The notes: generated by a model not told the origin, from the sequence alone. 64,000 nucleotides of DNA from an uncultured Gammaproteobacteria bacterium (GCA_965231135.1 OZ246419.1:385488-449487), one strand, 5' to 3'. Positions 7,654-49,007 are shown, counted from the stretch's first letter. Translations and numbers: made by a program.

Positions 7654-8380
7654 ATTTTTGTTTAATAAAAAAATAGAATATATAAATTTGTATAACTATT
7701 GCCCAATTAATTGTTTGCCACCATCTACCAACGATTGCGGATTTTCTCGTACTCTTTGTATAACTTATGGGAATTTCGACGAACTTCAAATTTTGTGTAA
7801 CTACATGAAGCGTCAGTTCGGTATTAAATAGAGCTGTTCCGTTATTACTCCATTTTGAAATGTTTTTTTTAAGTGCCTCTTTCTTAAACAATTTATAGGT
7901 GCAGCCAACATCTGTCAGTGCAACGCTGTTGAATAATATTTCGATTGTCTTTGCTTCTAAAACATTGGCGAATTTTCTTATGATACCCATCCCCGTTCCG
8001 GAAAGAGAGCCGATTTGGCTAGTTCTGGTGCCAAGTACAACATCGAAATCTCGTGAGTAGACTAAAAATTTTTCTATGTCGCTTGCTTTCAGGGAACCAT
8101 CTGCTTCGCATATAACGATATAGTCACATGAAGCTTTTTTAATTGCAGTTTTATATGCGTAACCATATCCTTGTTTTTTTTCGTAATATATTTTTACGAT
8201 TCCTTTTTTGAAAGGTGTCGATTTTGTAATTTCTTTGTAGGTGCCTTTTTCTGCATTATTGTCTATTACTATTATTTCATCTACAAAGTTAGTTTTATAA
8301 AAATTATCGAGTACTGATTTAATTGTTTTTTTCTCTCTGTATGTTGCGATTGCAACTGACACAGTTTTACCCTCGTACAT
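7643..8380 (-). CDS. glycosyltransferase family 2, polyprenyl-phosphate sugar synthase (DPM1/ArnC-like)
   Basis: The N-terminus VSVAIATYREKKTI...IVIDNNAEKGT and a DXD-like motif CEADGS match the short GT2 'dolichol-P-mannose synthase-like' fold. Its 3' end overlaps the 3' end of 6145..7653 by 11 nt (convergent). Confidence 0.7.
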   Translation of the reverse strand: MYEGKTVSVAIATYREKKTIKSVLDNFYKTNFVDEIIVIDNNAEKGTYKEITKSTPFKKGIVKIYYEKKQGYGYAYKTAIKKASCDYIVICEADGSLKASDIEKFLVYSRDFDVVLGTRTSQIGSLSGTGMGIIRKFANVLEAKTIEILFNSVALTDVGCTYKLFKKEALKKNISKWSNNGTALFNTELTLHVVTQNLKFVEIPISYTKSTRKSAIVGRWWQTINWAIVIQIYIFYFFIKQKFNF

Positions 8381-8551
8381 TTGCTGTAATTCTAGTATAA
8401 TTTTTGCAATATATGAAGTTGTATTTATTTTTTGTAGTAGGATTTTTGTTCATTTCTCTACTTCTCTTTTTAAATCACCCTGGAGTTGCAATTAGAATTG
8501 TAAATTGGATTTTTTATTTACTGATAATTGCAATTTTATTTAAATTATTTT

Positions 8552-11143: not shown

Positions 11144-12383
11144 ATCGGCAACTTTTCGTCATACAGGAATTGTTACGACAGCAACTGTAATAAATGGAAT
11201 TTTGGGTTTTGTATTTTTTTGGTGGGTAGCTCGCGTTTTTGACGCGAAAACATTGGGTGAATTTAGCGTTGCTGTAACTGCTTCTGGACTTGTTACTGAT
11301 ATTGCAGTAGTGGGTACGGAAACTGGAACTGTAAATTTTGTAGGAAAATATATAAAAAAAGAAAAGGAAAAGGCTTTAAGATTTTTAAAGTTGGCGTTTG
11401 AGACAAAAATTGTTGTTTGTGTATTAGTAGTTGTTATTGGCTGGTTCTTGGTTCCTTTTTTTGCAATTTATTTTTTTAAAAACAGTTCGTTAATTTTACC
11501 TCTTAGACTGTCACTTTTTATTTCAGTAGGACTTTTATTATTCGGGTTTGCAACTAGCAGTTTGCAGGCGATTCAGAAATTTAATATCTGGGGTTTAGTT
11601 AACATCTCCTCTAATTTTACAAGACTCGTTTTTATGGCTATATTGTTAGCTACCGGTAGCTTTGCATTACAGTCGGGTTTAATTATTCAAACAGTTGCTC
11701 CGATAATATTTTTTATATCTTCGCTTTTGTTTTTGCCCAGGTTTTTGGGAGTTAAAAATGAAAATAAAGTTTTGCAAGAATTTTTCCATTATAATAAATG
11801 GGTTGCGTTATTTACTATTCTTGCTGCGGTAGCAAGTAGACTAGATATTTTTTTTGTTACTAGAATTTTAGGGCTTACTGCTGTTGGTATTTATTCAGTT
11901 GCAGTCACTTTATCTAGTATTATTCCTCAGCTTGTGGGTGCAATAGGAACAGTTGTTGCTCCAAAACTTGCAGGGCAAAACAATAAAACACAAGCGATTG
12001 AATATCTTAAAAAATTGCAGGTTTTTGTTGGTGTACTTTCTTTGTTGGGAATAGTTTCAGGGATTTTTGTTGGATATTTTTTTATAAGACATTTCTATAA
12101 ACCAGAATATTTTGCAAGTTTTGTTCCCTTTATAGTTTTACTTGTTGCTCAAGTAGTTTTCCTTTTTTCTATTCCAGTGCACATGACCACAATTTATTAT
12201 TTTTCATATCCAAAACTTTTTGTAACAATAAGTCTTGTGAATGTAATTGTTGTTACCATTTTTTGTTTAGTTTTAATACCAATTTTTGGTATAGCTGGAG
12301 CAGCGTTAGCTATCTTATTTGGGAGTATTTCCAATTTTATTATTCCTGCATTTTGGGTTTTTGGAAAATTTAAAAATGATTAG
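11115..12383 (+). CDS. oligosaccharide flippase (MOP superfamily, Wzx-like polysaccharide biosynthesis protein)
   Basis: 422 aa with about 12-14 TM helices and a polysaccharide-biosynthesis-protein-like N-terminus. Overlaps the upstream gene by 29 nt. Confidence 0.55.
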   Translation: MREKILAITRSATFRHTGIVTTATVINGILGFVFFWWVARVFDAKTLGEFSVAVTASGLVTDIAVVGTETGTVNFVGKYIKKEKEKALRFLKLAFETKIVVCVLVVVIGWFLVPFFAIYFFKNSSLILPLRLSLFISVGLLLFGFATSSLQAIQKFNIWGLVNISSNFTRLVFMAILLATGSFALQSGLIIQTVAPIIFFISSLLFLPRFLGVKNENKVLQEFFHYNKWVALFTILAAVASRLDIFFVTRILGLTAVGIYSVAVTLSSIIPQLVGAIGTVVAPKLAGQNNKTQAIEYLKKLQVFVGVLSLLGIVSGIFVGYFFIRHFYKPEYFASFVPFIVLLVAQVVFLFSIPVHMTTIYYFSYPKLFVTISLVNVIVVTIFCLVLIPIFGIAGAALAILFGSISNFIIPAFWVFGKFKND

Positions 12384-36829: not shown

Positions 36830-37559
36830 ACTCTGTTAAATCAAAATTTCTTGTGATAAAGACAGACGCAGAACCTCCATCTAAATTGATAATATCTGCA
36901 AAATTAATATTTTCTTTTTGTTCAAATTGATTTAATAAACTTGGAACATCGTTTAAAAACGGACCTGAAAATTCTGAATCCTTGTCATAAATAACTAAAA
37001 AATATAAATTATTGTTGCCGTCAACAGCTGCCAAAACTCTTCGAGAATTTTTATCATTTGTAATTTGTAAGCTGTCGTAAGAATTATTTTCTTTAATTAT
37101 TGGACCTGTTTGGACTGCAATTTGTAAATGGTCTTGTGGTAAATTTTGGGTAATTCTTGGAGTTGCGAAATCATTAACTGACAAAACACCATTTAATAAA
37201 TTGTTATTTTCATAATCTGAAATTGTATTTCCATTTGTAATAATTAATCCAAGAGGTTGATTGTTTGTACCATAAAACGGACCGTTTGCTAAAAACATAC
37301 AACTATTTTGATCTATTACATCTTTGGAAGAAAGCTTTTGAGAAAAATTGGGAATTAATTTTAAATTATTTATGTTTATTATTTGGTACCAGGAAAAAGT
37401 GTAATTATTTATTTCTGCAGAATTATTTTGAGCAACTGGAGTAGGGGATGGAATTTGAGCATTTGATTTTTGCGGATTAGTATTTTTGTTTTTAAGTATT
37501 AAAATACCAAAGATAACTAAAGGGATAAAAATTAAAATGGCAATTAAAAGTTTTCGCAT
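36795..37559 (-). CDS. secreted phosphodiester glycosidase family (DUF2233-like) protein
   Basis: N-terminal signal anchor. Motifs ANGPFY, RRVLAAVDGNNNLYFLVI and INLDGGSAS resemble the NAGPA/phosphodiester glycosidase family. Confidence 0.5.
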   Translation of the reverse strand: MRKLLIAILIFIPLVIFGILILKNKNTNPQKSNAQIPSPTPVAQNNSAEINNYTFSWYQIININNLKLIPNFSQKLSSKDVIDQNSCMFLANGPFYGTNNQPLGLIITNGNTISDYENNNLLNGVLSVNDFATPRITQNLPQDHLQIAVQTGPIIKENNSYDSLQITNDKNSRRVLAAVDGNNNLYFLVIYDKDSEFSGPFLNDVPSLLNQFEQKENINFADIINLDGGSASVFITRNFDLTEFNPVGAFFCQS

Positions 37560-38265
37560 ACAAGATATTATAGTTCACAATTGCAATTTTTTAAACTTTA
37601 ATCTATCCGAAAGTTCGGTTGATTTAATAATCACTTCCCCTCCTTACAATATTGGAATAGATTATGGAATTTATAACGATAACAAAACTTATAAAGAATA
37701 TCTTGAATTTACAAAAAAGTGGTTAGGAAAAAGTTTTGACATTTTAAAAAGTAACGGACGAATTTGCATTAATGTGCCAATTGACACAGGAAAGAACGGA
37801 AAAAGAAGTTTGGCCGCTGACTTAACAATTCTTGCAAAAAGAACTGGTTTTAAATATAAAGGAACAATTGTTTGGGATCATTCGACTTCGCTCATGACTA
37901 GTAGCAAACAAAAAAAGTTTTATGCAATGGCGTTTTCTAAAAATATAGAGTTAATTTTGATTTTTTACAAAGATGAATGGATTTCTGTAAAAAAAGAATT
38001 TAGAGATTATGTAAATGAAATTTGGAAATTTAGCGGCGAAAATCCAAAAAGAGTAAACCACCCTGCAGCTTTTCCAGTTGAGATTCCAAGAAGACTAATA
38101 AAAATGTTTAGCGAAACAAATGATATTGTTTTAGATCCGTTTTTGGGAAGCGGGACGACGCTTATGGCGTGTAAACAATTATTAAGAAAAGGAATTGGAA
38201 TAGAAATTGACGAGAAATATTTTGAAGGTTCAAAAACAAGAATTAGTGACCAAAATAAACACTAA
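37537..38265 (+). CDS. site-specific DNA methyltransferase (beta-class N6-adenine/N4-cytosine, ParB-less), apparently orphan
   Basis: Motif IV SPPY (VDLIITSPPYNIG) precedes AdoMet motif I (VLDPFLGSGTT) near the C-terminus, which is the beta-class order. No adjacent endonuclease candidate. The start at 37537 overlaps the divergent upstream gene by 23 nt. Confidence 0.75.
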   Translation: MAIKSFRIQDIIVHNCNFLNFNLSESSVDLIITSPPYNIGIDYGIYNDNKTYKEYLEFTKKWLGKSFDILKSNGRICINVPIDTGKNGKRSLAADLTILAKRTGFKYKGTIVWDHSTSLMTSSKQKKFYAMAFSKNIELILIFYKDEWISVKKEFRDYVNEIWKFSGENPKRVNHPAAFPVEIPRRLIKMFSETNDIVLDPFLGSGTTLMACKQLLRKGIGIEIDEKYFEGSKTRISDQNKH

Positions 38266-38449
38266 GAATAACTCCAAGAATTAAAAAGACTGCAGAAGTG
38301 AAAATTGCTGTTTGCAAAGCTTGCTTTCTTGCTGCGCTTTTACTTGCAAAATGATGCTGATATTCATCAAGAGAAACTACATAAGCGATAAACCCAGCAA
38401 ACGGGCTAAAAGTTATTGTGATTGCGATAACAAGAGCTGAAAGGTTCAT
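38243..38449 (-). CDS. small 2-TM membrane protein, hypothetical
   Basis: 68-aa ORF with two hydrophobic helices between the DNA methyltransferase and hsdM. Confidence 0.3.
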   Translation of the reverse strand: MNLSALVIAITITFSPFAGFIAYVVSLDEYQHHFASKSAARKQALQTAIFTSAVFLILGVILSVYFGH

Positions 38450-38495
38450 AAATCATTGTAACACTGTGAAGTTGGAGAAGTGATAAAATAAGCTC

Positions 38496-40073
38496 ATGCT
38501 TGTTGAGGATAAAAGAAATTTAGAGAAACAACTTTGGGCAGTTGCCAATGTTCTTCGAGGAAAAATGAATGCGGATGAATATAAAAATTATATTCTAGGC
38601 TTTATTTTTTACAAATACCTTTCTGAAAAACTTGAACGCTTTATAAACGATAAACTTCTTTCTAGAGAGAACTATAAATTTTCTGGAATTGGGGGAAACA
38701 CCCAAAAAGATAGGGATGTTTTAAAAGCAGTAGAACATGCCTGTGTAGAGCAGCTAGGATACTTTTTGAGACCCAGAGAACTGTTTTTGTATTTAGTCAA
38801 AAAAGGCAACCGGGAAATTAAAGGACAGGAAAACTTCATACTTGAAGATCTTAAAAGTGTTTTAAACACAATTGAACAAACATCAATGGGAACAGCGAGT
38901 GAAGATGATTTTAAAGGTTTGTTTGATGATGTAGATTTAACTTCTTCAAAACTTGGGAAAACTGAGACTAAGAAAAATGAGGTAATTGTTGAAGTCTTAA
39001 CATTGCTTTCTGGAATTGATTTTAAATTGGAAGATACCAAAAGCGATCTTTTGGGAGATGCTTATGAATATTTGATTGGAGAGTTTGCGGCAGGTGCTGG
39101 TAAAAAGGGAGGGGAATTTTATACACCTGCTCAAGTTTCAAGATTATTGTCGAAAATTGTTACTGAAGGAAAACAAAGAATTAAATCGGTTTATGATCCG
39201 ACATGTGGTTCAGGGTCGCTTCTTCTTCGCGTTGGGGATTTTGCACAAATTGTTGATTATTACGGACAGGAATTAAACCCTACAACTTACAATTTGGCAC
39301 GTATGAATATGATCCTTCATGGAGTTCGTTTTGACCATTTTAGTATTAGGCATGGCGATACGCTAACTGATGACATGCATCAAGATTTACAAGCTGAAGC
39401 AGTTGTTGCTAATCCTCCATTTTCAGCAGATTGGGAGAGTAATAAAAATCCTTTGCTTGAACAGGATGAGCGGTTTTCTCAGTACGGAAGATTAGCTCCA
39501 AAGGGATATGCGGATTATGCGTTTGTGACCCATATGATTTATCATTTGGCAGATAACGGCGTAATGGCAGTAGTTCTTCCCCATGGAGCACTCTTTAGGG
39601 GAGGAGCAGAAGGCCAAATACGAAAGCACATAATTGAAAGACAAAATTATCTGGATGCAGTGATAGGGCTTCCGGCAAATCTTTTTTATGGCACTTCAAT
39701 TCCAGCTTGTATCCTAATTTTCAAAAAATGCAGAAAAGAAGATCAAGATATTTTATTTATTGACGCCTCGAAAGAGTTTGAAAAAGGAAAAAATCAAAAT
39801 AAATTAACAGATGAAAATATCGAGAAGATTTTTGAGACTTATAGAAATAGAAAAGAATTAAAAAGATATTCTCACAGAGCAAGTTTGAATGAAATAAAAG
39901 AAAATGAATATAACCTAAATATTCCAAGATATGTAGATACCTTTGAGCCAGAACCGGAAATTGATATAGAAAAAGTTGCAAAAGAAATTAAGACTTTGGA
40001 AATAGATGAAGTGAAACTTCAAGGAAAAATAGCAGAATTTTGCAAAGAATTAAAAATAGAAATCCCTTTTTGA
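38496..40073 (+). CDS. hsdM: Type I restriction-modification system, DNA methyltransferase subunit M
   Basis: N-terminal HsdM_N-like helical domain (LWAVANVLRGKMNADEYKNYILGFIFYKYLSE). AdoMet motif YDPTCGSGSLL. Catalytic NPPF (VVANPPFS). Confidence 0.9.
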   Translation: MLVEDKRNLEKQLWAVANVLRGKMNADEYKNYILGFIFYKYLSEKLERFINDKLLSRENYKFSGIGGNTQKDRDVLKAVEHACVEQLGYFLRPRELFLYLVKKGNREIKGQENFILEDLKSVLNTIEQTSMGTASEDDFKGLFDDVDLTSSKLGKTETKKNEVIVEVLTLLSGIDFKLEDTKSDLLGDAYEYLIGEFAAGAGKKGGEFYTPAQVSRLLSKIVTEGKQRIKSVYDPTCGSGSLLLRVGDFAQIVDYYGQELNPTTYNLARMNMILHGVRFDHFSIRHGDTLTDDMHQDLQAEAVVANPPFSADWESNKNPLLEQDERFSQYGRLAPKGYADYAFVTHMIYHLADNGVMAVVLPHGALFRGGAEGQIRKHIIERQNYLDAVIGLPANLFYGTSIPACILIFKKCRKEDQDILFIDASKEFEKGKNQNKLTDENIEKIFETYRNRKELKRYSHRASLNEIKENEYNLNIPRYVDTFEPEPEIDIEKVAKEIKTLEIDEVKLQGKIAEFCKELKIEIPF

Positions 40074-40074
40074 T

Positions 40075-40917
40075 ATGAAGCGAAACACCAAACTTGCGAT
40101 GTCAGTCCATGAGAGTAATATAAATGTTGCTAAAGTAGGAGCTGAAGATTATATCTGTTTAACAGATATGGCTCGTAGTGCTGGTGCGGATAGAGCACTT
40201 CACAGTTGGCTAAGATCAAAAAACACAATAGATTTCTTGGGGTTTTGGGAGAAGATAAATAACCCTGATTTTAAAATACACGAATTCGTGTATTTTAAAA
40301 ATAATGCAGGTTCGAATAGCTTTAATCCATCAGTTGCTGATTGGATATTGAAGACAGGTGCAAAAGGTATTTTTTCTAAAAAAGGACGGTATGGTGGAAC
40401 ATACGCACACAAAGATATCGCTTTTGAGTTTGGAAGTTGGCTGAGTCCTGAGTTTAAGTTGTTGATAATTACAGAATTTCAAAGGTTGAAGGAGCGTGAG
40501 CAGAAATTTGCACGATGGGATGCACATAGATATTTGAGTAGAGTCAACTACAAGTTGCACACTGATTCTATTAAAAATGTGCTGCTACCATTTCTCCAAT
40601 TAGCTAAATCAGACGAAACATTTGTATATATAGATGAGGCAGATCTTTTGAACAAAATTGTATTTGGTCAAACTGCTTCAGAATGGAGAGCCAAAAATAA
40701 GAAATTGACAAAATCAGGACGAAATCAACGAGATTATGCATCCTCTCAGGAATTAGTTATACTTGCAAACCTGGAAAATTTGAATGCACATTTTATAAAT
40801 GAAAAGAAAACGCAAAAGGAGAGGGTGACACTTTTGATAGACTCGGCAGAAAGGCAATTACGAACTTTTATTAAAGAAGACGAAGAAGAGCAAAAACTTT
40901 TAGAAGCAAAGAAATAA
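40075..40917 (+). CDS. KilA-N domain-containing protein embedded in the Type I R-M operon
   Basis: N-terminal region (VAKVGAEDYICLTDMARSAG....SWLRSKNTIDFLGFWE) matches the KilA-N DNA-binding domain. The C-terminal half is helical. It starts 2 nt after the hsdM stop. Confidence 0.55.
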   Translation: MKRNTKLAMSVHESNINVAKVGAEDYICLTDMARSAGADRALHSWLRSKNTIDFLGFWEKINNPDFKIHEFVYFKNNAGSNSFNPSVADWILKTGAKGIFSKKGRYGGTYAHKDIAFEFGSWLSPEFKLLIITEFQRLKEREQKFARWDAHRYLSRVNYKLHTDSIKNVLLPFLQLAKSDETFVYIDEADLLNKIVFGQTASEWRAKNKKLTKSGRNQRDYASSQELVILANLENLNAHFINEKKTQKERVTLLIDSAERQLRTFIKEDEEEQKLLEAKK

Positions 40918-40919
40918 AC

Positions 40920-42143
40920 ATGATGATTAAAATTCCCAAACTCAGATTTCCTGAATTTAGTGGGGAGTGGGAAGAAAAAAAAATGGGGGATGTAGTGTGG
41001 CGAATTAAGACAGGAGTAAGTGTCAATTCTGAAGAAAGATTAAAGTTAACTAGCGAGTTGGGTATTTTAAAAACAAGTGCAGTTTTTAAAAGAAAATTTA
41101 AGCCTTATGAGCATAAAACTATTTTGTTGAGTGAGAATAAGAGAGCAAAAATTAATCCTAAAAAGGGAACTGTAATTGTTAGTAGGATGAACACCCCCGG
41201 TTTAGTAGGTGAAAGTGCCTATGTTTATGAAGACCATGACGATTTATATCTTCCTGATCGACTTTGGCTAGTTGAGTTTAATAAATATAGCAATGGTGAA
41301 TTTATAAGCTTTCTGATTTCAGAAGGTAAAATTAGAAGTAAGTTATCGACTATTGCTACAGGCACGAGTAATAGTATGAAAAATATTTCGCAACCTGGGT
41401 TTTTGGCAATTCGTATTTCTTTACCAAATTCAGATGAACAACAGAAAATTGCCTTATTTTTAACTTCTGTAGATTCTTGGATTGAAAGCCTTAAAAAACA
41501 ACAGGAGGAATTAGAAAAATACAAAAAAGGCATGATGCAAAAGATTTTTAGTCAAAAAATAAGATATAAAGATGATAATGGTAAAAATTTTCCTAAATGG
41601 GAAGAAAATAAATTAGGAGATTTGTTTGACGAATGCAACGACAGAAAAGAAAATCAAAGTTTTGAAATGTTATCTATTTCGCAAAGTAAGGGCATTGTTA
41701 AGCAAGATACAACAATTAAGAAAGATAGTTCTAGTTTAGACAAATCCAAGTATAAAATAGTTCGAGTTGGAGACATAGCATATAACACCATGCGTATGTG
41801 GCAAGGTGCGTCTGCTGTTTCTAGTTTTGATGGCATAGTGAGTCCTGCATATACAGTTGTTAGACCTAAAAAAGGCAATGTTATTTTTTTTGGATATCTT
41901 TTTAAATATCCTCGAATAGTGTTTAATTTTTATAGATATTCTCAAGGGCTTACATCAGATACTTGGAACCTTAAATTTAAGCATTTTTCTGAAATAATTG
42001 TGACAATACCTGCGAGTACTAAAGAGCAAGAAAAAATTGCCAATTTCTTGACTTCAATTGATAATCTTCTACAATCCAAGCAACAGCAAATTTCTATGGC
42101 AGAAAATTGGAAAAAAGGCTTAATGCAAAGGATGTTTGTATAA
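40920..42143 (+). CDS. hsdS: Type I restriction-modification system, specificity subunit S (two target-recognition domains)
   Basis: Conserved N-terminal LRFPEFSGEWEE, a central repeat LPNSDEQQKIALFLTSVDSWIESLKKQQEELEKYKKGMMQKIF and a C-terminal repeat STKEQEKIANFLTSIDNLLQSKQQQISMAENWKKGLMQRMF. Confidence 0.85.
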   Translation: MMIKIPKLRFPEFSGEWEEKKMGDVVWRIKTGVSVNSEERLKLTSELGILKTSAVFKRKFKPYEHKTILLSENKRAKINPKKGTVIVSRMNTPGLVGESAYVYEDHDDLYLPDRLWLVEFNKYSNGEFISFLISEGKIRSKLSTIATGTSNSMKNISQPGFLAIRISLPNSDEQQKIALFLTSVDSWIESLKKQQEELEKYKKGMMQKIFSQKIRYKDDNGKNFPKWEENKLGDLFDECNDRKENQSFEMLSISQSKGIVKQDTTIKKDSSSLDKSKYKIVRVGDIAYNTMRMWQGASAVSSFDGIVSPAYTVVRPKKGNVIFFGYLFKYPRIVFNFYRYSQGLTSDTWNLKFKHFSEIIVTIPASTKEQEKIANFLTSIDNLLQSKQQQISMAENWKKGLMQRMFV

Positions 42144-42145
42144 AT

Positions 42146-42820
42146 ATGGCTAAATCAAAATTTTATCCTCCAAAATTTAACGAAGGTCAATTTCATTGTC
42201 CTCACTGCGGTGTTTATGCAAAACAATTTTGGGCGCATATAAGGGCAACGAATCTACATTTTTCCGATTTTGTTATCAGAAACAATACTCCTTTTGATGA
42301 AGCACTTTCTGTAGAGTGGAGAATTTCTAGATGTGAACATTGCGGAAATTATATGTTTTGGTTGAATCAAGACATCGTTTATCCAGATAAAATTTCAGTA
42401 GACGATCCGAATGATGATTTAAATCCAGATATAAAAAGAGACTATAAAGAAGCAGCGGAGATACTTCATAAATCTCCTAGGGGCTCGGCTGCACTTCTGC
42501 GACTGTCATTACAAAAATTATTAAAACAACTTGGTGAAGAAGGAAATAATATTAATGAAGATATAAAGAAATTAATCGCTAACGGACTTAATCCTACGAT
42601 TCAGAAAGCACTTGATTATGTAAGGATAACAGGAAACAACGCAGTTCACCCTGGACAAATTGATCTTTCTGATAATAAAGATATAGCGTTAAAACTTTTT
42701 GAGGTTATTAACTTTATCGCTGAAAAGACGATTAGTGAACCAAAAGAAGTTAACAGATTGTTCGACAGTCTCCCTGAAGATGAAAAAGAAAAAATTAAAA
42801 AGAGAGACAATCAAAACTAA
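42146..42820 (+). CDS. DUF4145-like protein with N-terminal double CxxC zinc ribbon, embedded between hsdS and hsdR
   Basis: CPHCG...CEHCG zinc-ribbon spacing. The helical C-terminal region (AAEILHKSPRGSAALLRLSLQKLLKQLG...ALDYVRITGNNAVH) resembles DUF4145, which is often seen in Type I R-M loci. It starts 2 nt after the hsdS stop and ends 1 nt before the hsdR start. Confidence 0.45.
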   Translation: MAKSKFYPPKFNEGQFHCPHCGVYAKQFWAHIRATNLHFSDFVIRNNTPFDEALSVEWRISRCEHCGNYMFWLNQDIVYPDKISVDDPNDDLNPDIKRDYKEAAEILHKSPRGSAALLRLSLQKLLKQLGEEGNNINEDIKKLIANGLNPTIQKALDYVRITGNNAVHPGQIDLSDNKDIALKLFEVINFIAEKTISEPKEVNRLFDSLPEDEKEKIKKRDNQN

Positions 42821-42821
42821 C

Positions 42822-45614
42822 ATGACCACACAATCTGAAGCACAACTAGAACTGGAACTTATACAACAGCTTAATAAGCTGGGGTTTGAGAGTGTTACAA
42901 TTCCTGACTCCACCGCTTTAATAACAAATCTTAAACTTCAACTTGAAAAGTTTAATGAAACTAAACTTACTGACAGGGAATTTGAGAAAATTCTTAATCA
43001 TCTTATGCATGGTGATAGATTTGATAAAGGTAAAACTTTGCGTGATAGATTTTTATTGCACCGAGATGATGAGACAACTTTTTATATTCGCTTTTTTAAT
43101 ATGGATCAGTGGTGCCGTAATGTTTATCAAGTTGCTCATCAGATAACGCAAATGGGGAATTATAAAAATAGATATGATGTAACGCTTCTTGTGAATGGAC
43201 TTCCACTTGTTCAAATAGAATTAAAGAGGCGAGGCGTTGAAATGAAAGAAGCCTTTAATCAGATAAATCGCTATCAGAGAAATACTTTTACTGGAACTTT
43301 GTTTGAATATATTCAAATATTTGTAATTAGTAATGGCGTAAATACGAAATATTTTGCTAATAATCCAAGGCAATTTTTTGAACAAACTTTCTTTTGGACA
43401 GATGAGAAGAACAGGAAAATTACAAAGTTAAACGAATTTGCTGATGTATTTTTAGAAAAATGTAACCTTTCAGAAATGATTGCTGAATATATTGTTTTAG
43501 CCGAAGCCAAAGATAGGACAATGATGATTTTGCGGCCCTATCAGTATTATGCAGTGAAGGCTATCCAAAAACGAGTTCGTGAAGGAAATAAAAATGGATA
43601 TATCTGGCATACAACTGGATCAGGAAAGACTTTAACTTCTTTTAAAACTAGCCAAATACTTTCTAGAATTCCTGAAGTTAAAAAAATACTTTTTGTAGTT
43701 GATAGAAAAGATTTAGATATTCAGACAACTAAAGAATTTAACTCTTTTTCCAAAGATTCTGTGGACGGGACAGAAAATACTAAAAATTTAGTTAAGCAGC
43801 TGAAAGATAAAAATAGAAAATTAATTGTTACAACAATTCAAAAACTGGATGTTGCTATAAGGCGCGAAAAATATTTGGACCAGTTTGCTTATTTGCAAGA
43901 CGAAAAAGTGATAATTATTTTTGATGAATGTCACAGAAGTCAGTTTGGTCTGACAAATGCGCGAATTAGAAATTTTTTCCATAACGCCCAGATGTTTGGG
44001 TTTACAGGCACTCCGATTTTTGCAGAAAACAACATTGGTGGGGTAACCACTGCAGATGTGTTTGGAGAATGCTTGCATAAATATGTTATTACTCATGCAA
44101 TTGAAGATAAAAATGTTTTAGGATTTGCTGTTGAGTATGTTGGTAAATATAAACAAAAGTTTCCAGATACTGTATATATGGATAATTTTGTTGATCCTAC
44201 GGTTTCAGGAATTGATACTAAAGAGGTTTTAGAAAGTGATGATAGGGTTTCGAAAATTACGGATTATATTTTGAGTGATTGGAAAAAGAAAACAAAGAAT
44301 GGAAAATTTAATGCTTTTTTTGCGGTTTCTAACATTGAAGTTTTGAAAAAATATTATAAGCATCTAAAGACCCGAAAACCTGAAGATTTTAAGCTTGCAA
44401 CAATTTTTACATATCAGGCAAATGAAGAAGAATCAACAGATATGCTTGATGTTGATGTTTTTGCAGAAGGGGCTGTAAATGAACAGTCCCGGGAATTTTT
44501 AGAAAAATGTATTAAAGACTATAACGAAGTTTTTGGAACAAATTTTTCTACTGATAAGTTTTATAATTATTACAAAGATTTACAAAAAAGAATTAAAGAT
44601 AAAGAGGTAGATTTAGTGTTGGTTGTAAACATGTTTTTAACTGGATTTGATAGTGCAAGGCTTAATACTTTATATGTTGATAAAAACCTTCGTTATCATG
44701 GACTTATTCAAGCATACTCAAGAACAAATAGACTTTTGAATGCTGATAAACCTCATGGAAATATTGTAACATTTCGGAATTTAAAAGAAGCTACTGACCA
44801 AGCACTTGCTTTGTTTGGCGATGAGAACGCAAGGGAAATTGTATTCAAAAAACCATATGAAGAACAAAAGATAGAGTTTGAAATCAAACTACAAGAACTT
44901 AGAGAAAAGACTCCAACAGTAGAATCAGTAGATAATTTGCAGGGAGATGAAGAAAAAGCTTCTTTTGTTAAAACATTTCGTGATTTGCTTAGAATAAAAT
45001 CGTCCTTGGAAACCTTTGCCGAATTTTCTTTTGACAATCTTGGAATAACAGAACAGGAATTTTATGATTATCAAAGTAAATATTTAGATATTTATGAAAA
45101 AAGGAAAAACCAAACTGAAGAAGAATCGGTTCTTGATCAAATTGATTTTGAAATTGAGTTAACAGTGCGTGATATTATTGATTTTGATTATATTATTAAA
45201 CTTATTGCGGGACTTAAAGATATTACTTCCAAAGCTCTTCGTGAGAAGAAAACCGAAGAGATACTCAAACTATTTGATCATAGCGTAAAGCTTCGAAGCA
45301 AAAAGGAGCTAATAAGAAAGTTTATTGAGGAGAATTTACCTAAGGTTGTTGATTCTGGCAAGGCAGAAGACGCATTTGAAAACTTTTGGAATAGTGAGCG
45401 ATCAAAACAACTTAAAGAAATTGCAATAAAGGAAAACATCCAAGAAGAAAAATTTGAAAAATTAATTAGTGAATATTTATATACTCAAAAACTGCCAAGC
45501 GGCCAAGATATTGTTGATTCATTGCCTCAAACACCGCATATTCTAGAAAGACAAGGGATTATCGACAGAATCAAAACAGCAATAGAAAAAATTGTAGAAA
45601 TATTTGAGTGGTGA
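42822..45614 (+). CDS. hsdR: Type I restriction-modification system, restriction subunit R
   Basis: N-terminal PD-(D/E)XK nuclease core (YDVTLLVNGLPLVQIELKRRG). SF2 helicase motif I HTTGSGKTLTS, motif II DECHRSQ, and motif III/VI regions. About 930 aa. Confidence 0.9.
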   Translation: MTTQSEAQLELELIQQLNKLGFESVTIPDSTALITNLKLQLEKFNETKLTDREFEKILNHLMHGDRFDKGKTLRDRFLLHRDDETTFYIRFFNMDQWCRNVYQVAHQITQMGNYKNRYDVTLLVNGLPLVQIELKRRGVEMKEAFNQINRYQRNTFTGTLFEYIQIFVISNGVNTKYFANNPRQFFEQTFFWTDEKNRKITKLNEFADVFLEKCNLSEMIAEYIVLAEAKDRTMMILRPYQYYAVKAIQKRVREGNKNGYIWHTTGSGKTLTSFKTSQILSRIPEVKKILFVVDRKDLDIQTTKEFNSFSKDSVDGTENTKNLVKQLKDKNRKLIVTTIQKLDVAIRREKYLDQFAYLQDEKVIIIFDECHRSQFGLTNARIRNFFHNAQMFGFTGTPIFAENNIGGVTTADVFGECLHKYVITHAIEDKNVLGFAVEYVGKYKQKFPDTVYMDNFVDPTVSGIDTKEVLESDDRVSKITDYILSDWKKKTKNGKFNAFFAVSNIEVLKKYYKHLKTRKPEDFKLATIFTYQANEEESTDMLDVDVFAEGAVNEQSREFLEKCIKDYNEVFGTNFSTDKFYNYYKDLQKRIKDKEVDLVLVVNMFLTGFDSARLNTLYVDKNLRYHGLIQAYSRTNRLLNADKPHGNIVTFRNLKEATDQALALFGDENAREIVFKKPYEEQKIEFEIKLQELREKTPTVESVDNLQGDEEKASFVKTFRDLLRIKSSLETFAEFSFDNLGITEQEFYDYQSKYLDIYEKRKNQTEEESVLDQIDFEIELTVRDIIDFDYIIKLIAGLKDITSKALREKKTEEILKLFDHSVKLRSKKELIRKFIEENLPKVVDSGKAEDAFENFWNSERSKQLKEIAIKENIQEEKFEKLISEYLYTQKLPSGQDIVDSLPQTPHILERQGIIDRIKTAIEKIVEIFEW

Positions 45615-45616
45615 AA

Positions 45617-46318
45617 ATGAATATAAAAACCATTGGAGAGTTTGGTGAGAAATATGTGGGAGAATTTTTGGTGGCTGATATTGGCAGGAGAGATGAAATA
45701 AAAAGTGATTGGTATGAGGGGTTGAAGTTTTTCTTTTCTAAGTCGTTTTATAGAGGAAGGAAGGATGAAATTTCTGAAAATTTTCAGAAACGTGCGATGG
45801 AAGTTGTAGAGAATTTTGACTTAAAAAATAATATTAAAAGATTTAAATCGAGTGAATTTGAGGAGCTTTTGGTTGCAAATAAAGTTAATAATAGGGTTGA
45901 TAGAAGAATGATTTGTCAGACAATAGAAATGATCAGACACAACAACGGAAGAAATATTGTTTTATATTCTATTGAACAAATTCATGATGGAAATATTTCT
46001 GGTGTTTATCAAGAATTATGTAATATTTACGGGGTTGCTGATAAGATTGCAACATTTTTTCTTCGAGATTTGGCTTTGGTTTTTGAATTAGAAAATGAAA
46101 TAAAAAAGCAAGATTTTATTTACTTTCAGCCAATTGATACATGGGTAAAGCAAGTTAGTGATAAACTTGGAGTTACTGAACCGAGAGATGACAGAGAAGT
46201 GACTAAAAGCAAAATAATAAATAAATGTTTAATTGAACACACATCTCCTCTTTTGTTTAATGCTGGAGCTTGGTATGTAGGTAAACATTCATTCGATATT
46301 CTTTTAAATTATGTCTGA
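45617..46318 (+). CDS. HhH-GPD superfamily-like DNA glycosylase (predicted)
   Basis: Helix-hairpin-helix-like segment LCNIYGVADKIATFFLRDLA, with a Lys where Nth-type bifunctional enzymes have their catalytic Lys. A downstream FQPIDTWVKQV resembles the PVDTHV Asp-containing loop of EndoIII/Ogg/AlkA-family enzymes. No Fe-S Cys cluster. Starts 2 nt after the hsdR stop. Confidence 0.4.
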   Translation: MNIKTIGEFGEKYVGEFLVADIGRRDEIKSDWYEGLKFFFSKSFYRGRKDEISENFQKRAMEVVENFDLKNNIKRFKSSEFEELLVANKVNNRVDRRMICQTIEMIRHNNGRNIVLYSIEQIHDGNISGVYQELCNIYGVADKIATFFLRDLALVFELENEIKKQDFIYFQPIDTWVKQVSDKLGVTEPRDDREVTKSKIINKCLIEHTSPLLFNAGAWYVGKHSFDILLNYV

Positions 46319-47069
46319 TTATTACAAACCAAACAGGAAAAGAAATATTTATGATCCGGAATCTCGCGAGCCTTTTCGGCTTAGCCGCTCTAAAATTGAT
46401 CTTTTTATAAATTGCCCGAGGTGTTTTTATTTGGATCGGCGACTTGGGGTTTCTCAACCTCCATCTTATCCGTTTTCTTTAAATAGTGCTGTTGATAAGC
46501 TTCTTAAAAAAGAATTTGATATTCACCGAAATGCAAAAACGCAGCATCCTTTAATGAAAGCGTATGGAATTGATGCAATTCCTCTAGCACACGAGAAAAT
46601 TGATGAATGGAGAGATTCATTAAGAAGAGGAGTAACTGCGCCAATAGATGGGACAAATGTGATTATTACTGGAGGAGTTGATGATGTGTGGGTAAACCTA
46701 GCTGGCGAGTTTATTATTGTTGACTACAAATCTACTTCAAAGGAGACGGAAGTTAATTTGGATGCTGATTGGCAGATAGCTTATAAAAGGCAAATGGAAG
46801 TTTATCAGTGGCTATTTCGTAAAAATGGATTTAAAGTTTCTGACACTGGATATTTTGTTTATTGTAACGGCAACACAGATAGAAAAGCATTTGATGCAAA
46901 GCTTGAATTTGATATCAAATTAATTGCCTATAAAGGGGATACTTCATGGATTGCAGAAACAATAATGAATGCAATCAATTGTTTGAAGTCTGATGAACTT
47001 CCAGAGTGTGGAGAGGCTTGTGATTATTGTGCTTATAGAAAAGCTGTGAAAGAATATGAGAAAGCTTAA
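46311..47069 (+). CDS. PD-(D/E)XK nuclease, Cas4/RecB-like with a four-Cys (Fe-S) cluster
   Basis: N-terminal Cys (INCPRCFY). Motif II GGVDDVWV, motif III IIVDYKS (D-x-K), QxxxY motif RQMEVYQW, and three C-terminal Cys (CGEACDYC). Overlaps the upstream gene by 8 nt. Confidence 0.6.
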   Translation: MSDYYKPNRKRNIYDPESREPFRLSRSKIDLFINCPRCFYLDRRLGVSQPPSYPFSLNSAVDKLLKKEFDIHRNAKTQHPLMKAYGIDAIPLAHEKIDEWRDSLRRGVTAPIDGTNVIITGGVDDVWVNLAGEFIIVDYKSTSKETEVNLDADWQIAYKRQMEVYQWLFRKNGFKVSDTGYFVYCNGNTDRKAFDAKLEFDIKLIAYKGDTSWIAETIMNAINCLKSDELPECGEACDYCAYRKAVKEYEKA

Positions 47070-47725
47070 CCTGTTTGTTCTGGATTTTTAACTTCTGGAA
47101 CTGGAGTTGCAAAGATATTATCAATTGAAGTATTTGGAATAATTAGATTTTTGCGATCGCAATTGACTGGTGGCTCTGTCCATAGTAATTTTCTCCAGTC
47201 TTTCTTTTTTGATGCAGCATCTTGCGCACTAAAATATTTATTACTTGCATCTTGAAGATTTTTTGCCGGAATTGTTGGATCAGTATTATTTTGACTATTT
47301 GGGTTTTCGAAGAGATTTTGAATGTACTCTGCGTCATCTCTTTGAGCTTTATACATATTGTATTGGAGAGTTGCTAAATCTTTGATATATTTTGGCTGAA
47401 ATATTTGGAATGCCCAGTTATTTATATATTTTGAATCTTTGTCTAACCAGTTATTTTCGAGGGGAATATATTTTTGAATACCTGAAATATAGTTATTGAA
47501 ATCTTGCATTGCTTCATCTTTTGAGCCATTATTGTTCATAACTTGCCACATCTGAAGATAAGAATTTTTATAAGCGATTAAGGCTGGATTTACATTATTA
47601 CATCTATCGTCGAAAATTTTTCCGTTTTCATCTGCTTGGGACTGGAGAATTCTTGAATATATAAATGTAGCTAACAGTAATATCAAGAAAGTCACACCGG
47701 TAATTTTTAGGATTTTCTTTTTCAT
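47066..47725 (-). CDS. secreted or membrane-anchored hypothetical protein
   Basis: N-terminal signal/TM (ITGVTFLILLLATFIYS), polar and Asn/Gln-rich. Convergent with the Cas4-like gene, overlapping it by 4 nt. Confidence 0.4.
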   Translation of the reverse strand: MKKKILKITGVTFLILLLATFIYSRILQSQADENGKIFDDRCNNVNPALIAYKNSYLQMWQVMNNNGSKDEAMQDFNNYISGIQKYIPLENNWLDKDSKYINNWAFQIFQPKYIKDLATLQYNMYKAQRDDAEYIQNLFENPNSQNNTDPTIPAKNLQDASNKYFSAQDAASKKKDWRKLLWTEPPVNCDRKNLIIPNTSIDNIFATPVPEVKNPEQTG

Positions 47726-47753
47726 CTTTATTTAGTAGAGTATAATTGGTTTT

Positions 47754-49007
47754 ATGAAAAAAATAAAAGTTTCTATTCAAGACGAAAACACTTTGGTGCT
47801 ATTGGAGGATGCTCAAAAAGGTGATTTGGTTGATCTTAAATCAATACATGAAACAGATATTGATAAATCTTCAATCGATAACCTAATTAAATCAATCAAA
47901 ACGGATGAGTTTGATACGCAATTAGAAGTTGCGAAACGTAGTATAGAAAAAGAGAAAAGACTTGAAGCTGAAATTAAAGAAAAGGAAGCACTTGCAAAAA
48001 GAGACCAGGAAATTGCAGCTCTGAACATAAGAATTCAGACAGCAGATATTGAGAAAAAACTTGCTGTTACAGAAGCAACAAAAAAAATTGAGAAAGAACG
48101 AAATGATTTAGTTAATGAAGTAAGAAATAAAGAGATAGAAAAACAATTACTTGAGAAGTCTCTAACCGAGAAATTTTCTGCCGAACTTAAGACTAAAGAT
48201 GATGTTATCAAGATGAAAGATGATGAGATTGCTCTTCGTAAAGATATGAAACTTAGATTGTCAACAAAAATGGTAGGCGAAACATTAGAGCAACATTGTG
48301 AGGTGGAATTTAACAAACTTCGAGCTACTGCTTTTCCAAAGGCCTATTTTGAAAAAGATAATGATTCTAGAAGTGGGAGTAAGGGAGACTACATTTATAG
48401 AGATGTGGATGAATCTGGTACTGAAATAATTTCAATTATGTTTGAGATGAAAAACGAAGGAGACGAGACGGCTACAAAACATAAGAACGAGGATTTTTTA
48501 CAAGAACTTGATAAAGATCGATTAGAAAAAAAATGTGAGTATGCTGTTTTGGTTACGTTATTGGAAATTGATAATGATTTATATAACTCCGGTATTGTTG
48601 ATGTTTCGCATAAATACCCCAAAATGTATGTAGTCCGTCCTCAGTTTTTTATTCCTATAATAACAGTGCTTCATAATGCTGCTATGAATTCACTTAAATA
48701 TAAGACAGAGCTTGCATTGGTGAGAAGTCAAAATATTGATATTACAAATTTTGAGAATGATATAAATAAATTTAAGGAAGGGTTTGCAGGTAATTTTGAT
48801 CTTGCTAGCCGTAAATTTAAAACAGCTATAGATGAAATTGATAAAACGATGGATCATTTACAGAAAACGAAAGAGGCTTTATTGTCATCTGTGAATAATC
48901 TTAGGCTTGCAAATAGTAAAGCACAGGATTTAACTATCAAGAAATTAACGCGTGGTAATCCTACAATGACAGCAAAATTTGAAGAAATAAATCAGAAAAT
49001 CAGTTGA
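47754..49007 (+). CDS. coiled-coil protein with C-terminal RmuC/DUF2130-like predicted PD-(D/E)XK domain
   Basis: Residues about 60-170 are Lys/Glu-rich heptad-like coiled coil. Downstream, [28 protein letters not shown] has a D...hhhExK arrangement, followed by [16 protein letters not shown]...YAVLV...GIVDVS, reminiscent of DUF2130/RmuC proteins. Assignment is from memory. Confidence 0.4.

Follow-up and report, generated by a model that had tools for sequence, protein, structure and literature searches.

Variable genes lying between hsd genes were reportedly named rlo, for restriction-linked ORF, by Miller et al. in 2005, in Campylobacter type I restriction-modification (R-M) loci. In EcoprrI, a type IC system, the gene of the HEPN-type RNase PrrC is nested between hsdS and hsdR, and restriction is backed by suicide; PrrC and RloC have an N-terminal ABC/Rad50-like ATPase domain. 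More generally, embedded genes are found in Hma, BREX, DISARM and type I R-M loci, and those of the latter three kinds gave rise to the PDC families through 'guilt-by-embedding' (Payne et al., bioRxiv 10.1101/2024.01.29.577857). In E. coli, RAZR (PD-T7-4) is a zinc-finger RNase activated by rings (Vassallo et al. 2022; Nature 2026, PMC13017515; PDB 9y9c). Carried on a plasmid it protects against T3, T7, SECphi18 and SECphi27; around Gp77 or portal rings it assembles as a 24-mer, it cuts ssRNA, and R146A and H154A abolish defence (PMC13017515). It is thus an abortive-infection RNase triggered directly by phage ring proteins, with no need of an R-M partner (PMC13017515). BstA is a prophage-encoded KilA-N abortive-infection protein, carried in lysogeny modules (Owen et al. 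2021) and known mainly from Proteobacteria.

We analysed a 64,000-nucleotide stretch of DNA (the window) from a genome belonging to the Patescibacteria (CPR). It holds a type I R-M operon with one passenger gene in the hsdM-hsdS junction (slot 1) and another in the hsdS-hsdR junction (slot 2). Since embedding of genes in hsd operons is already known, the case is a clear example, not a new kind of system. The features are as follows.

38266..38495, plus strand: presumed promoter region upstream of the operon (gap distribution, sequence)
38496..40073, plus strand: hsdM, type I methyltransferase subunit, 525 aa, EcoR124-like (Pfam, TIGR00497, PDB)
40075..40917, plus strand: slot 1 passenger, KilA-N/Rha-C protein, 280 aa, PADLOC candidate PDC-S22 (Pfam, PADLOC, PHROG)
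40920..42143, plus strand: hsdS, specificity subunit, 407 aa, two target-recognition domains (Pfam, PADLOC)
42146..42820, plus strand: slot 2 passenger, RAZR/PD-T7-4 homologue, 224 aa, ATG start (Pfam, PADLOC, PDB)
42822..45614, plus strand: hsdR, restriction/translocase subunit, 930 aa, EcoR124-type (domains, TIGR00348, PDB)
45617..46318, plus strand: 233-aa ORF, ATG at 45617, 2 nt past the hsdR stop (junction sequence)
46311..47069, plus strand: PD-(D/E)XK nuclease, Cas4/RecB-like, 252 aa (Pfam PDDEXK_1 7.6e-14; Cas4 models 1e-9 to 1e-10)

The gene order of the original prediction, with two passengers inside an intact type I R-M operon, was borne out: hsdM, KilA-N, hsdS, DUF4145 and hsdR are five intact genes in this order, all on the plus strand. 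Its tight spacing was likewise found, with gaps of 1, 2, 2 and 1 nt along the operon in place of the 2, 2, 2 and 1 nt first given. Directly 5' of hsdM lies a gap of 230 nt, unmatched in size by any other same-strand gap in the window and consistent with an operon start at hsdM; 46 nt separate a divergent minus-strand ORF of 68 aa (38243-38449) from the hsdM ATG. Promoter and terminator scans gave results at chance level, and a promoter upstream of hsdM is presumed from the gap and the sequence. The internal junctions are too tight to house promoters, so the simplest inference is co-transcription, with a single transcript beginning 5' of hsdM and running across the operon genes. Such junctions are the norm in this genome and not distinctive of the operon (by crude ORF calls, gaps of 5 nt or less separate 35 of the 46 same-strand neighbour pairs within the window), and the spacing therefore adds no evidence for functional coupling.

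By subunit similarity the hsd genes are an intact EcoR124-type, family IC-like type I R-M set of predicted activity. HsdM carries Pfam N6_Mtase (1.6e-112) plus HsdM_N, scores 469 bits against TIGR00497 (cut-off 243), and matches the PDB entry of EcoR124II HsdM at 1.4e-108, as against 1.7e-15 for EcoKI. HsdS shows two Pfam Methylase_S stretches and a PADLOC Specificity_I match (4e-85); its identity to the HsdS of sister operons is only about 33%, as expected since recognition domains are variable. The domains of HsdR are HSDR_N, SWI2_SNF2, T1R_D3-like and EcoR124_C (the last at 1.1e-56), with 505 bits against TIGR00348, above the cut-off, and a match to PDB EcoR124 HsdR at 2e-173.

The slot 2 protein has the DUF4145 domain that had been predicted (Pfam 4e-13), and proves to be a homologue of RAZR. 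It matches the PADLOC PD-T7-4 model at full length (3.2e-86, model positions 2-209 of 211) and aligns end to end with chain OA of PDB 9y9c (E 6.9e-55, residues 5-223 against 3-209, 44% identity), the two having in common a Cys4 ribbon, a linker, the DUF4145/HEPN domain and an Arg-x7-His pair. The double CxxC zinc ribbon read at the start of the protein is present as C18-x2-C21 and C63-x2-C66, which align with both CxxC knuckles of chain OA; the four cysteines make a single Cys4 ribbon built from two knuckles. In the HEPN domain, the catalytic pair of E. coli RAZR, R146 and H154, has its aligned counterparts in R160 and H168. The window homologue differs in a 12-residue insertion between the zinc knuckles, and in context: the native neighbour of the E. 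coli gene is an integrase, not hsd, whereas the window homologue lies inside a CPR type I R-M operon. Some other RAZR homologues have R-M genes of type IIG or type II as neighbours. Judged from these alignments, a defence role for the slot 2 protein is well founded.

Contents of the two slots were surveyed in 80 metagenome loci whose HsdM is 70-82% identical to that of the window; ORF calling was crude (minimum ORF length 70 aa, minimum for a passenger 100 aa), and some near-duplicate loci are included. Of the resolved loci, 26 of 50 have an occupied slot 1 and 30 of 34 an occupied slot 2, and the 79 passengers (three related loci counted in) form 60 sequence clusters. Compared with rlo genes and embedded loci generally, with which it shares variable genes between hsd genes, this hsd lineage has slots far more often filled than empty (slot 2 above all) and exceptional diversity. 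Many of the clusters are known defence families, the passengers including KilA-N, Schlafen/AlbA_2, NYN, Bro-N, RhuM, Abi_2/AbiD, AbiEii, Fic/SoFic, Shedu SduA, reverse transcriptases (Drt2, DRT), KAP NTPases, Old/AriA-like ATPases and several PDC families, and, in slot 1 of one related operon, an RloB-family gene with an AAA_21 partner. KilA-N itself occupies slot 1 in only 3 of the 50 resolved cases. Two sister operons were compared: (i) L083 has HsdM, KilA-N and HsdR 73, 72 and 73% identical to those of the window, but its slot 2 holds an unrelated gene of 185 aa; (ii) L088 has HsdM, HsdR and RAZR 76, 76 and 70% identical, but its slot 1 holds Fic and a gene of 168 aa, and its slot 2 an additional DUF8370/8371 gene. 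KilA-N and RAZR are each found without the other, and they also adjoin type II, IIG and III systems. The original prediction held that absence of the passengers from homologous hsd operons would speak against it; such absence is seen for the KilA-N and RAZR genes, replaced by other passengers in operons whose HsdM and HsdR are 73-76% identical, but not for the embedding itself.

We therefore favour, as the probable explanation, an hsd lineage whose hsdM-hsdS and hsdS-hsdR junctions are slots of variable content, taking up defence cassettes that are autonomous and can replace one another, with layered immunity as the outcome. The operon genes would be read as one transcript, so that passengers are expressed and inherited with the R-M system. 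HsdMSR would methylate host DNA and cut unmodified incoming DNA; a phage that got past restriction would make portal-type rings, around which RAZR would polymerise via its zinc ribbon, and polymerisation would turn on the HEPN RNase, with ssRNA cut and the infection aborted. These RAZR steps are what would be expected from the published work on the 44%-identical homologue. The KilA-N protein would be a second autonomous factor, binding DNA through KilA-N and acting through its conserved helical domain. We infer that no physical link joins the passengers to the Hsd complex.

For the slot 1 protein the expected KilA-N domain was recovered (Pfam 9.5e-22, aa 15-140), as was the long helical C-terminal half, helical in the AF2 model over residues 125 to 279. 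It matches PADLOC PDC-S22 at full length (1e-103, residues 7-273 against model positions 5-272 of 281), the other PADLOC match being a weak one to PDC-M59A, and PHROG 2657 at 4.7e-48. PDC-S22 is a single-gene candidate family defined by its embedding in R-M, BREX or DISARM loci, a kind of setting that the slot 1 gene shares, and membership of it says little on mechanism; no experimental report on it was found in the literature searched. To the family our analysis adds a Rha-like C-terminal homology (residues 115-242 align with ES18 gp79, which is P22 Rha-like, at 27% identity, E 3e-11) and a place directly 3' of the methyltransferase gene, occupied by KilA-N in 9 of 9 loci examined, across three hsdM lineages. 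This constant place hints at a closer methyltransferase tie than that of a free cassette. Conservation of the protein is unusually high for a defence gene (across phyla, about 50% identity; within a close clade, 59-72%), higher than that of the adjacent HsdM and HsdR; an alignment of 28 homologues has 80 invariant columns, with invariant polar residues throughout the C-terminal half.

High conservation and the post-hsdM place would also suit a DNA-binding regulator, either controlling the establishment or expression of R-M in the manner of a C protein or acting, as a phage-type Rha/antirepressor-like protein, on temperate elements, whether resident or incoming. The KilA-N fold binds DNA, PHROG 2657 and 129 carry the annotation transcriptional regulator, and the homology of the C-terminal half to ES18 gp79 points the same way; the best PDB matches of the AF2 model, DdrC and Mbp1, are DNA binders, though weak matches (E 1e-3, TM about 0.3). 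In Staphylococcus phage EW and in Streptococcus satellites, KilA-N homologues lie between repressor and integrase, within the repressor/integrase module, yet this prophage position is also classic for lysogeny-expressed defence genes such as that of BstA, itself a KilA-N protein. The scarcity of KilA-N in slot 1 implies that it is not required for running the operon, and its company with R-M systems of unrelated types and promoters (in a Saccharibacteria genome, type III mod and res flank homologues) speaks against an operator specific to the locus. Plasmids also carry homologues. We consider a regulatory role rather unlikely.

With BstA the slot 1 protein shares a KilA-N(-like) N-terminal domain and, through its homologues, a prophage lysogeny-module setting, and in both cases defence, putative for the slot 1 protein, is attributed to a DNA-binding protein; the C-terminal domain of the slot 1 protein is Rha-like, and comparison with the PADLOC models gave only the two PDC matches above. 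The original prediction had proposed both passengers as possible defence components, which is well founded for the DUF4145 gene as a RAZR/PD-T7-4 homologue; for the KilA-N gene, the PDC-S22 match and the context make a defence role plausible.

The original prediction further compared the locus to PrrC, and as an analogy of position this is apt: with EcoR124/type IC-like subunits, the hsd genes fall in the family of EcoprrI, and an HEPN RNase sits in the same hsdS-hsdR slot. It went on to suggest that the restriction complex stands guard over the passengers, such that HsdMSR would hold one or both inactive until a phage anti-restriction factor disabled the complex and freed suicide effectors. 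The invariable place of KilA-N after hsdM might be cited in its favour, as might a slot 2 passenger of one related operon that matches the AAA_13 ATPase model. That suggestion found no support, and we judge it improbable. E. coli RAZR, beside its integrase, is activated by ring proteins directly; homologues of both passengers adjoin other R-M types, and among 78 KilA-N genome loci only 18 have an R-M-like gene within four genes (about 77% have none); and hsd backbones 73-76% identical carry unrelated passengers in the slots. Beyond a shared logic of restriction with suicide as back-up, the likeness to PrrC and RloC is one of position and superfamily only: the window HEPN domain belongs to DUF4145 and not to the PrrC family, neither window passenger has any ATPase domain, and the sensor is a zinc ribbon, which in the studied RAZR homologue binds phage rings directly. 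Such genomic context argues against an Hsd-imposed latency of the passengers, and no sign that the Hsd complex controls them was found.

That the passengers are neutral hitch-hikers, selfish or decaying insertions now functionless and kept by the selected operon, would suit the fast turnover of slot contents (60 clusters for 79 passengers) and the loss of hsdS and hsdR from some related loci (L084), but it is scarcely credible for ORFs that are both full length against their family models, one with intact catalytic and zinc-binding residues and the other with its 80 invariant columns and 72% identity kept in a sister operon, and accompanied in the window by no transposase, integrase or repeat boundary.

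The closely packed array runs past 45614, and the gene following the ORF that ends at 47069 is on the opposite strand. The 233-aa ORF next to hsdR is probably co-transcribed with the operon and probably not a defence passenger. It has no Pfam, PADLOC, NCBIfam or PHROG match; its 88 homologues make a small family, mostly of Patescibacteria, a few labelled 'endonuclease III' by JGI, and in two other CPR genomes they stand in unrelated contexts, housekeeping in the one and a recombinase gene plus type III R-M in the other. The nuclease ORF overlaps it by 8 nt and encodes a CxxC at the N-terminus and a CxxxCxxC at the C-terminus. Whether this nuclease is part of the system is uncertain; copies 58-73% identical lie after hsdR in L088 and in three further related loci (L119, L139 and L144), and in another (L099) such a copy lies upstream of hsdM.

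Five long plus-strand ORFs fill window positions 38496-45614, and their domain matches confirm, with small corrections, the original prediction of a five-gene hsd array carrying a KilA-N and a DUF4145 protein as passengers, i.e. non-hsd genes at the hsdM|hsdS junction (slot 1) and the hsdS|hsdR junction (slot 2):

38496-40073, plus strand: hsdM; N6_Mtase (1.6e-112) and HsdM_N; TIGR00497 at 469 bits (cut-off 243)
40075-40917, plus strand: KilA-N protein; Pfam KilA-N (9.5e-22) over residues 15-140
40920-42143, plus strand: hsdS; two Methylase_S stretches
42146-42820, plus strand: DUF4145 protein; ATG start; Pfam DUF4145 (4e-13)
42822-45614, plus strand: hsdR; HSDR_N, SWI2_SNF2, T1R_D3-like and EcoR124_C; TIGR00348 at 505 bits

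By sequence similarity the R-M system is EcoR124/IC-like, because HsdR and HsdM fit EcoR124 (2e-173 and 1.4e-108) far better than EcoKI (HsdM only 1.7e-15). EcoprrI, the host locus of the anticodon nuclease PrrC, is a member of the same family (PMC3710099). The gaps between the genes are 1, 2, 2 and 1 nt in order; the last three are as predicted, while the first had been given as 2 nt. The five genes do lie within the predicted limits, but the tight array runs on past hsdR, where an ATG at 45617, 2 nt past the hsdR stop, opens a 233-aa ORF (45617-46318, plus strand).

We dropped these tight gaps as evidence of coupling, since 35 of the 46 same-strand neighbour pairs in the whole window, by crude ORF calls, have gaps of at most 5 nt; the operon junctions by themselves add no evidence for functional coupling. 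Only one same-strand gap in the window is large; it measures 230 nt and immediately precedes hsdM. Co-transcription is the simplest reading, because promoters have no space between the genes. Consensus scans of 37300-48000 returned promoters (41 found against a shuffled expectation of 41.9) and terminators (3 against 3.8) at chance level, and are therefore uninformative on transcription units.

The passenger in slot 2 is, judged by its sequence, a homologue of RAZR. First recovered as PD-T7-4 by functional selection in E. coli and renamed in a 2026 Nature paper, RAZR is an abortive-infection protein that combines a Cys4 zinc-ribbon domain with a DUF4145 HEPN RNase; it forms a 24-mer around phage Gp77 rings or the portal rings of T3, T7 and SECphi18 and then cleaves ssRNA, and the substitutions R146A and H154A abolish defence (PMC13017515). 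The window protein fits the PADLOC model PD-T7-4 (3.2e-86, model positions 2-209 of 211), and over residues 5-223 it matches chain OA of PDB 9y9c (6.9e-55, 44% identity), present there in 24 copies and named 'DUF4145 domain-containing protein'. Its R160 and H168 align with R146 and H154 of E. coli RAZR, and its C18, C21, C63 and C66 with the two RAZR zinc knuckles, between which it has a 12-residue insertion relative to 9y9c. That DUF4145 is a HEPN domain occurring in operons with R-M genes was reported in 2013 (PMC3710099). Homologues of about 60% identity occur beside other R-M types: in locus L089 one separates a type IIG-like methyltransferase from an S gene, and in locus L091 one stands last in a type II R-M cluster that includes a C-protein; E. 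coli RAZR homologues adjoin integrases. RAZR, its mechanism solved in E. coli, is here extended to Patescibacteria and to an R-M-embedded setting.

The slot 1 passenger matches the PADLOC candidate family PDC-S22 over its full length (1e-103, model positions 5-272 of 281). PDC families were collected by 'guilt-by-embedding' from genes within BREX, DISARM and type I R-M loci (bioRxiv 10.1101/2024.01.29.577857); we found no functional test of PDC-S22 among the papers searched, parts of that preprint's supplementary tables included. GenBank lists a protein identical to the window's from a 'Patescibacteria group bacterium' MAG, so the window is CPR DNA. The family is very large, with at least 8000 matches, and its members in Patescibacteria, Bacillota, Bacteroidota, Spirochaetota, Proteobacteria, Cyanobacteria and some archaea share about 50% identity. 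When 28 members are aligned, 80 columns are invariant, and polar residues of the C-terminal half account for many of these (H162, T163, D164, E188, D190, N217, Q218, D220, N232, E234 and R250 in the window protein). An AF2 model (pLDDT 75) has the KilA-N fold followed by helices over 125-279; a Foldseek search of the PDB with it gave DdrC (E 1e-3, TM ~0.3) and Mbp1, both DNA-binding, matches weak enough to serve as a lead and not as evidence. Residues 115-242 share homology (27% identity, pairwise E 3e-11) with gp79 of phage ES18, a P22 Rha-like protein, over the C-terminal half of the latter. Searched alone, the C-terminal domain returned 1244 cluster representatives; a pairing with other N-terminal domains was not borne out, as 8 of 10 representatives of varied length keep KilA-N, often partial, and the length variation is therefore mostly due to truncated or chimeric gene calls. 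In Staphylococcus phage EW and in Streptococcus satellites, full-length copies occupy the interval from repressor to integrase, a place typical of lysogeny-expressed defence genes; other copies are on plasmids.

The two passengers come apart in related operons.

Gene orders in the window operon and two related loci (identities are to the window proteins)
Window: reference; M, KilA-N, S, RAZR, R
L083: hsdM 73%, KilA-N 72%, hsdR 73%; M, KilA-N, S, an unrelated 185-aa gene, R
L088: hsdM 76%, hsdR 76%, RAZR 70%; M, Fic, a 168-aa gene, S, RAZR, DUF8370/8371, R

An obligate two-gene system of KilA-N and RAZR is ruled out by the presence of one without the other in L083 and L088, whose gene orders make the passengers independent of each other. 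A wider census used hsdM to scan metagenomes, which gave 80 loci of 70-82% identity, read by crude ORF calling: slot 1 was occupied in 26 of 50 resolved loci and slot 2 in 30 of 34. Both slots were resolved in 34 operons, and just 4 of these were free of passengers. Counting those of the window, L083 and L088, 79 passengers reach 100 aa, and they fall into 60 sequence clusters. Pfam contents of slot 1 are KilA-N, Schlafen/AlbA_2, NYN, Bro-N, RhuM, Abi_2, RloB with AAA_21, AbiEii, Fic and DUF3800; those of slot 2 are Shedu SduA_C, reverse transcriptases, KAP NTPases, AAA_15/AAA_21/AAA_13 ATPases, Abi_C, Ymh and DUF4145. About one third of the passengers match known or candidate defence models (PADLOC matches in the slots are PDC-S22, PDC-S05, PDC-S13, PDC-S23, SoFic, AbiLi, AbiD, PDC-S49, SduA, Drt2, Old/AriA-like and PDC-S42) and the remainder match nothing. 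The window thus holds one combination from a large cassette pool of its hsd lineage, a very rich 'cassette rack' that offers a ready candidate list for guilt-by-embedding discovery. One defence candidate is a family of about 180 aa, with only a weak match to PHROG 7805, that takes RAZR's place in slot 2 of L083 (10087-10644) and L094 (6294-6836). A second hsd lineage (L179, L180 and L181, each about 6001-10900; hsdM 57% identical to the window's) has KilA-N first in slot 1, followed by DUF4357 and unknown genes, and a SNIPE/T5orf172 protein or unknown genes in slot 2, with up to four passengers per operon.

Do the passengers depend on type I restriction? Among 78 genome loci with KilA-N homologues, an R-M-like gene lies within four genes in 18 (23%), directly adjacent in 14. 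Locus L001 (8026-13742; TM7 oral taxon 352, Saccharibacteria) has a homologue of 54% identity between type III mod (N6_N4_Mtase) and res (ResIII with RE_endonuc), joined by a 1-nt gap and an 11-nt overlap, so that the same passenger serves different R-M types. An enrichment in R-M neighbours that spans several biochemical types, alongside many loci lacking any, fits co-localisation and co-expression and does not fit a partnership specific to the HsdMSR proteins. The original prediction was right to see genes of defence, or candidates for it, at a position like that of PrrC; it also suggested that the restriction complex could guard them, and here autonomous cassettes in an operon of layered defence have the better support.

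The place of KilA-N within the operon is more regular. In the nine examined loci of the window protein's close clade (window, L083, L084, L179, L180, L181, L106, L108 and L167) it always comes straight after hsdM, even ahead of other passengers. The nine loci represent three hsdM lineages (73%, 57% and 40% identity to the window hsdM), across which KilA-N is 59-72% identical and better conserved than the adjoining Hsd proteins. Among distant homologues, a methyltransferase gene immediately precedes the KilA-N gene in 9 loci and immediately follows it in 3; in one exception, L104, the KilA-N gene follows hsdR. Much of this regularity may reflect shared ancestry, and we keep open a closer link of the protein with methyltransferases. 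Co-transfer of the junction found no footprint, as identity is not raised at the hsdM 3' end by KilA-N, and the hsdM C-terminus is the least conserved part of that protein. A long shot, in our judgement, is that the PDC-S22 KilA-N/Rha-C protein is no free-standing cassette but a methyltransferase-coupled sensor, which would bind DNA or DNA mimics, be made in step with the R-M methyltransferase, and respond to methylation loss or phage anti-restriction DNA mimics with growth arrest. We leave it open because of the first place after hsdM in nine of nine loci, the conservation above that of Hsd, and the 9 to 3 ratio of upstream to downstream methyltransferases; if true, type I, II and III systems could all be served by a widespread R-M guard that is new and has no relation to PrrC.

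The locus presents no new mechanism. Earlier work already describes RAZR, PDC-S22 and embedding in type I R-M loci. It is a clean natural example of layered immunity within a single operon of an ultra-small CPR genome, a group reported to have few defence systems per genome, though densely packed per Mb (PMC12259885). Two by-products are more useful: the slots of this lineage are very often filled, with very diverse contents, and PDC-S22 stands out by its position and conservation. This candidate family makes a good experimental target, being abundant, unusually conserved and reproducibly placed after methyltransferase genes.

Searches of Pfam, PADLOC, NCBIfam and PHROGs gave no hit for the 233-aa ORF downstream of hsdR. 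Its family is small (88 matches, mostly Patescibacteria), with a few members named 'endonuclease III' by JGI and one with PF22175. It is probably not a third passenger, since homologues elsewhere are in unrelated contexts; of those in two other CPR genomes, one is in a housekeeping context and one by a recombinase gene and type III R-M. Overlapping it by 8 nt is a 252-aa PD-(D/E)XK, Cas4/RecB-like nuclease ORF (46311-47069, plus strand), after which the next gene is on the opposite strand. The nuclease has an N-terminal CxxC and a C-terminal CxxxCxxC, cysteines that possibly hold an Fe-S cluster. Relatives of 58-73% identity lie just 3' of hsdR in several related operons (L088, at 11505-12260, L119, L139 and L144) and upstream of hsdM in L099; accessory genes may have a third point of attachment at this position.

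Just upstream of the operon is an N6_N4 type II DNA methyltransferase (37486-38265, plus strand; Pfam 7.6e-48, PADLOC MTase_II 1e-69), possibly an orphan methylase: no recognisable restriction enzyme adjoins it, and the overlapping minus-strand gene encodes a NAGPA-family protein. A strongly hydrophobic 68-aa ORF, apparently with two membrane helices (38243-38449, minus strand), diverges from hsdM, the two start codons being only 46 nt apart (38450-38495). Within this interval TGATAAAAT, which resembles an extended -10 element, ends 6 nt 5' of the hsdM ATG, a placement that would imply a leaderless or nearly leaderless hsdM transcript. On the other side, a 219-aa ORF (47066-47725, minus strand), which matches no family and has a hydrophobic segment at its N-terminus, converges on the operon end, followed by a DUF2130 protein (47754-49007, plus strand; 1.1e-87). 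No integrase or transposase adjoins the operon, and no tRNA genes were found in the window. All 1-kb bins of positions 1-64000 have positive GC skew, cumulative skew climbs monotonically and nearly every ORF is plus-strand; the entire window seems to belong to a single replichore whose genes strongly favour the leading strand.
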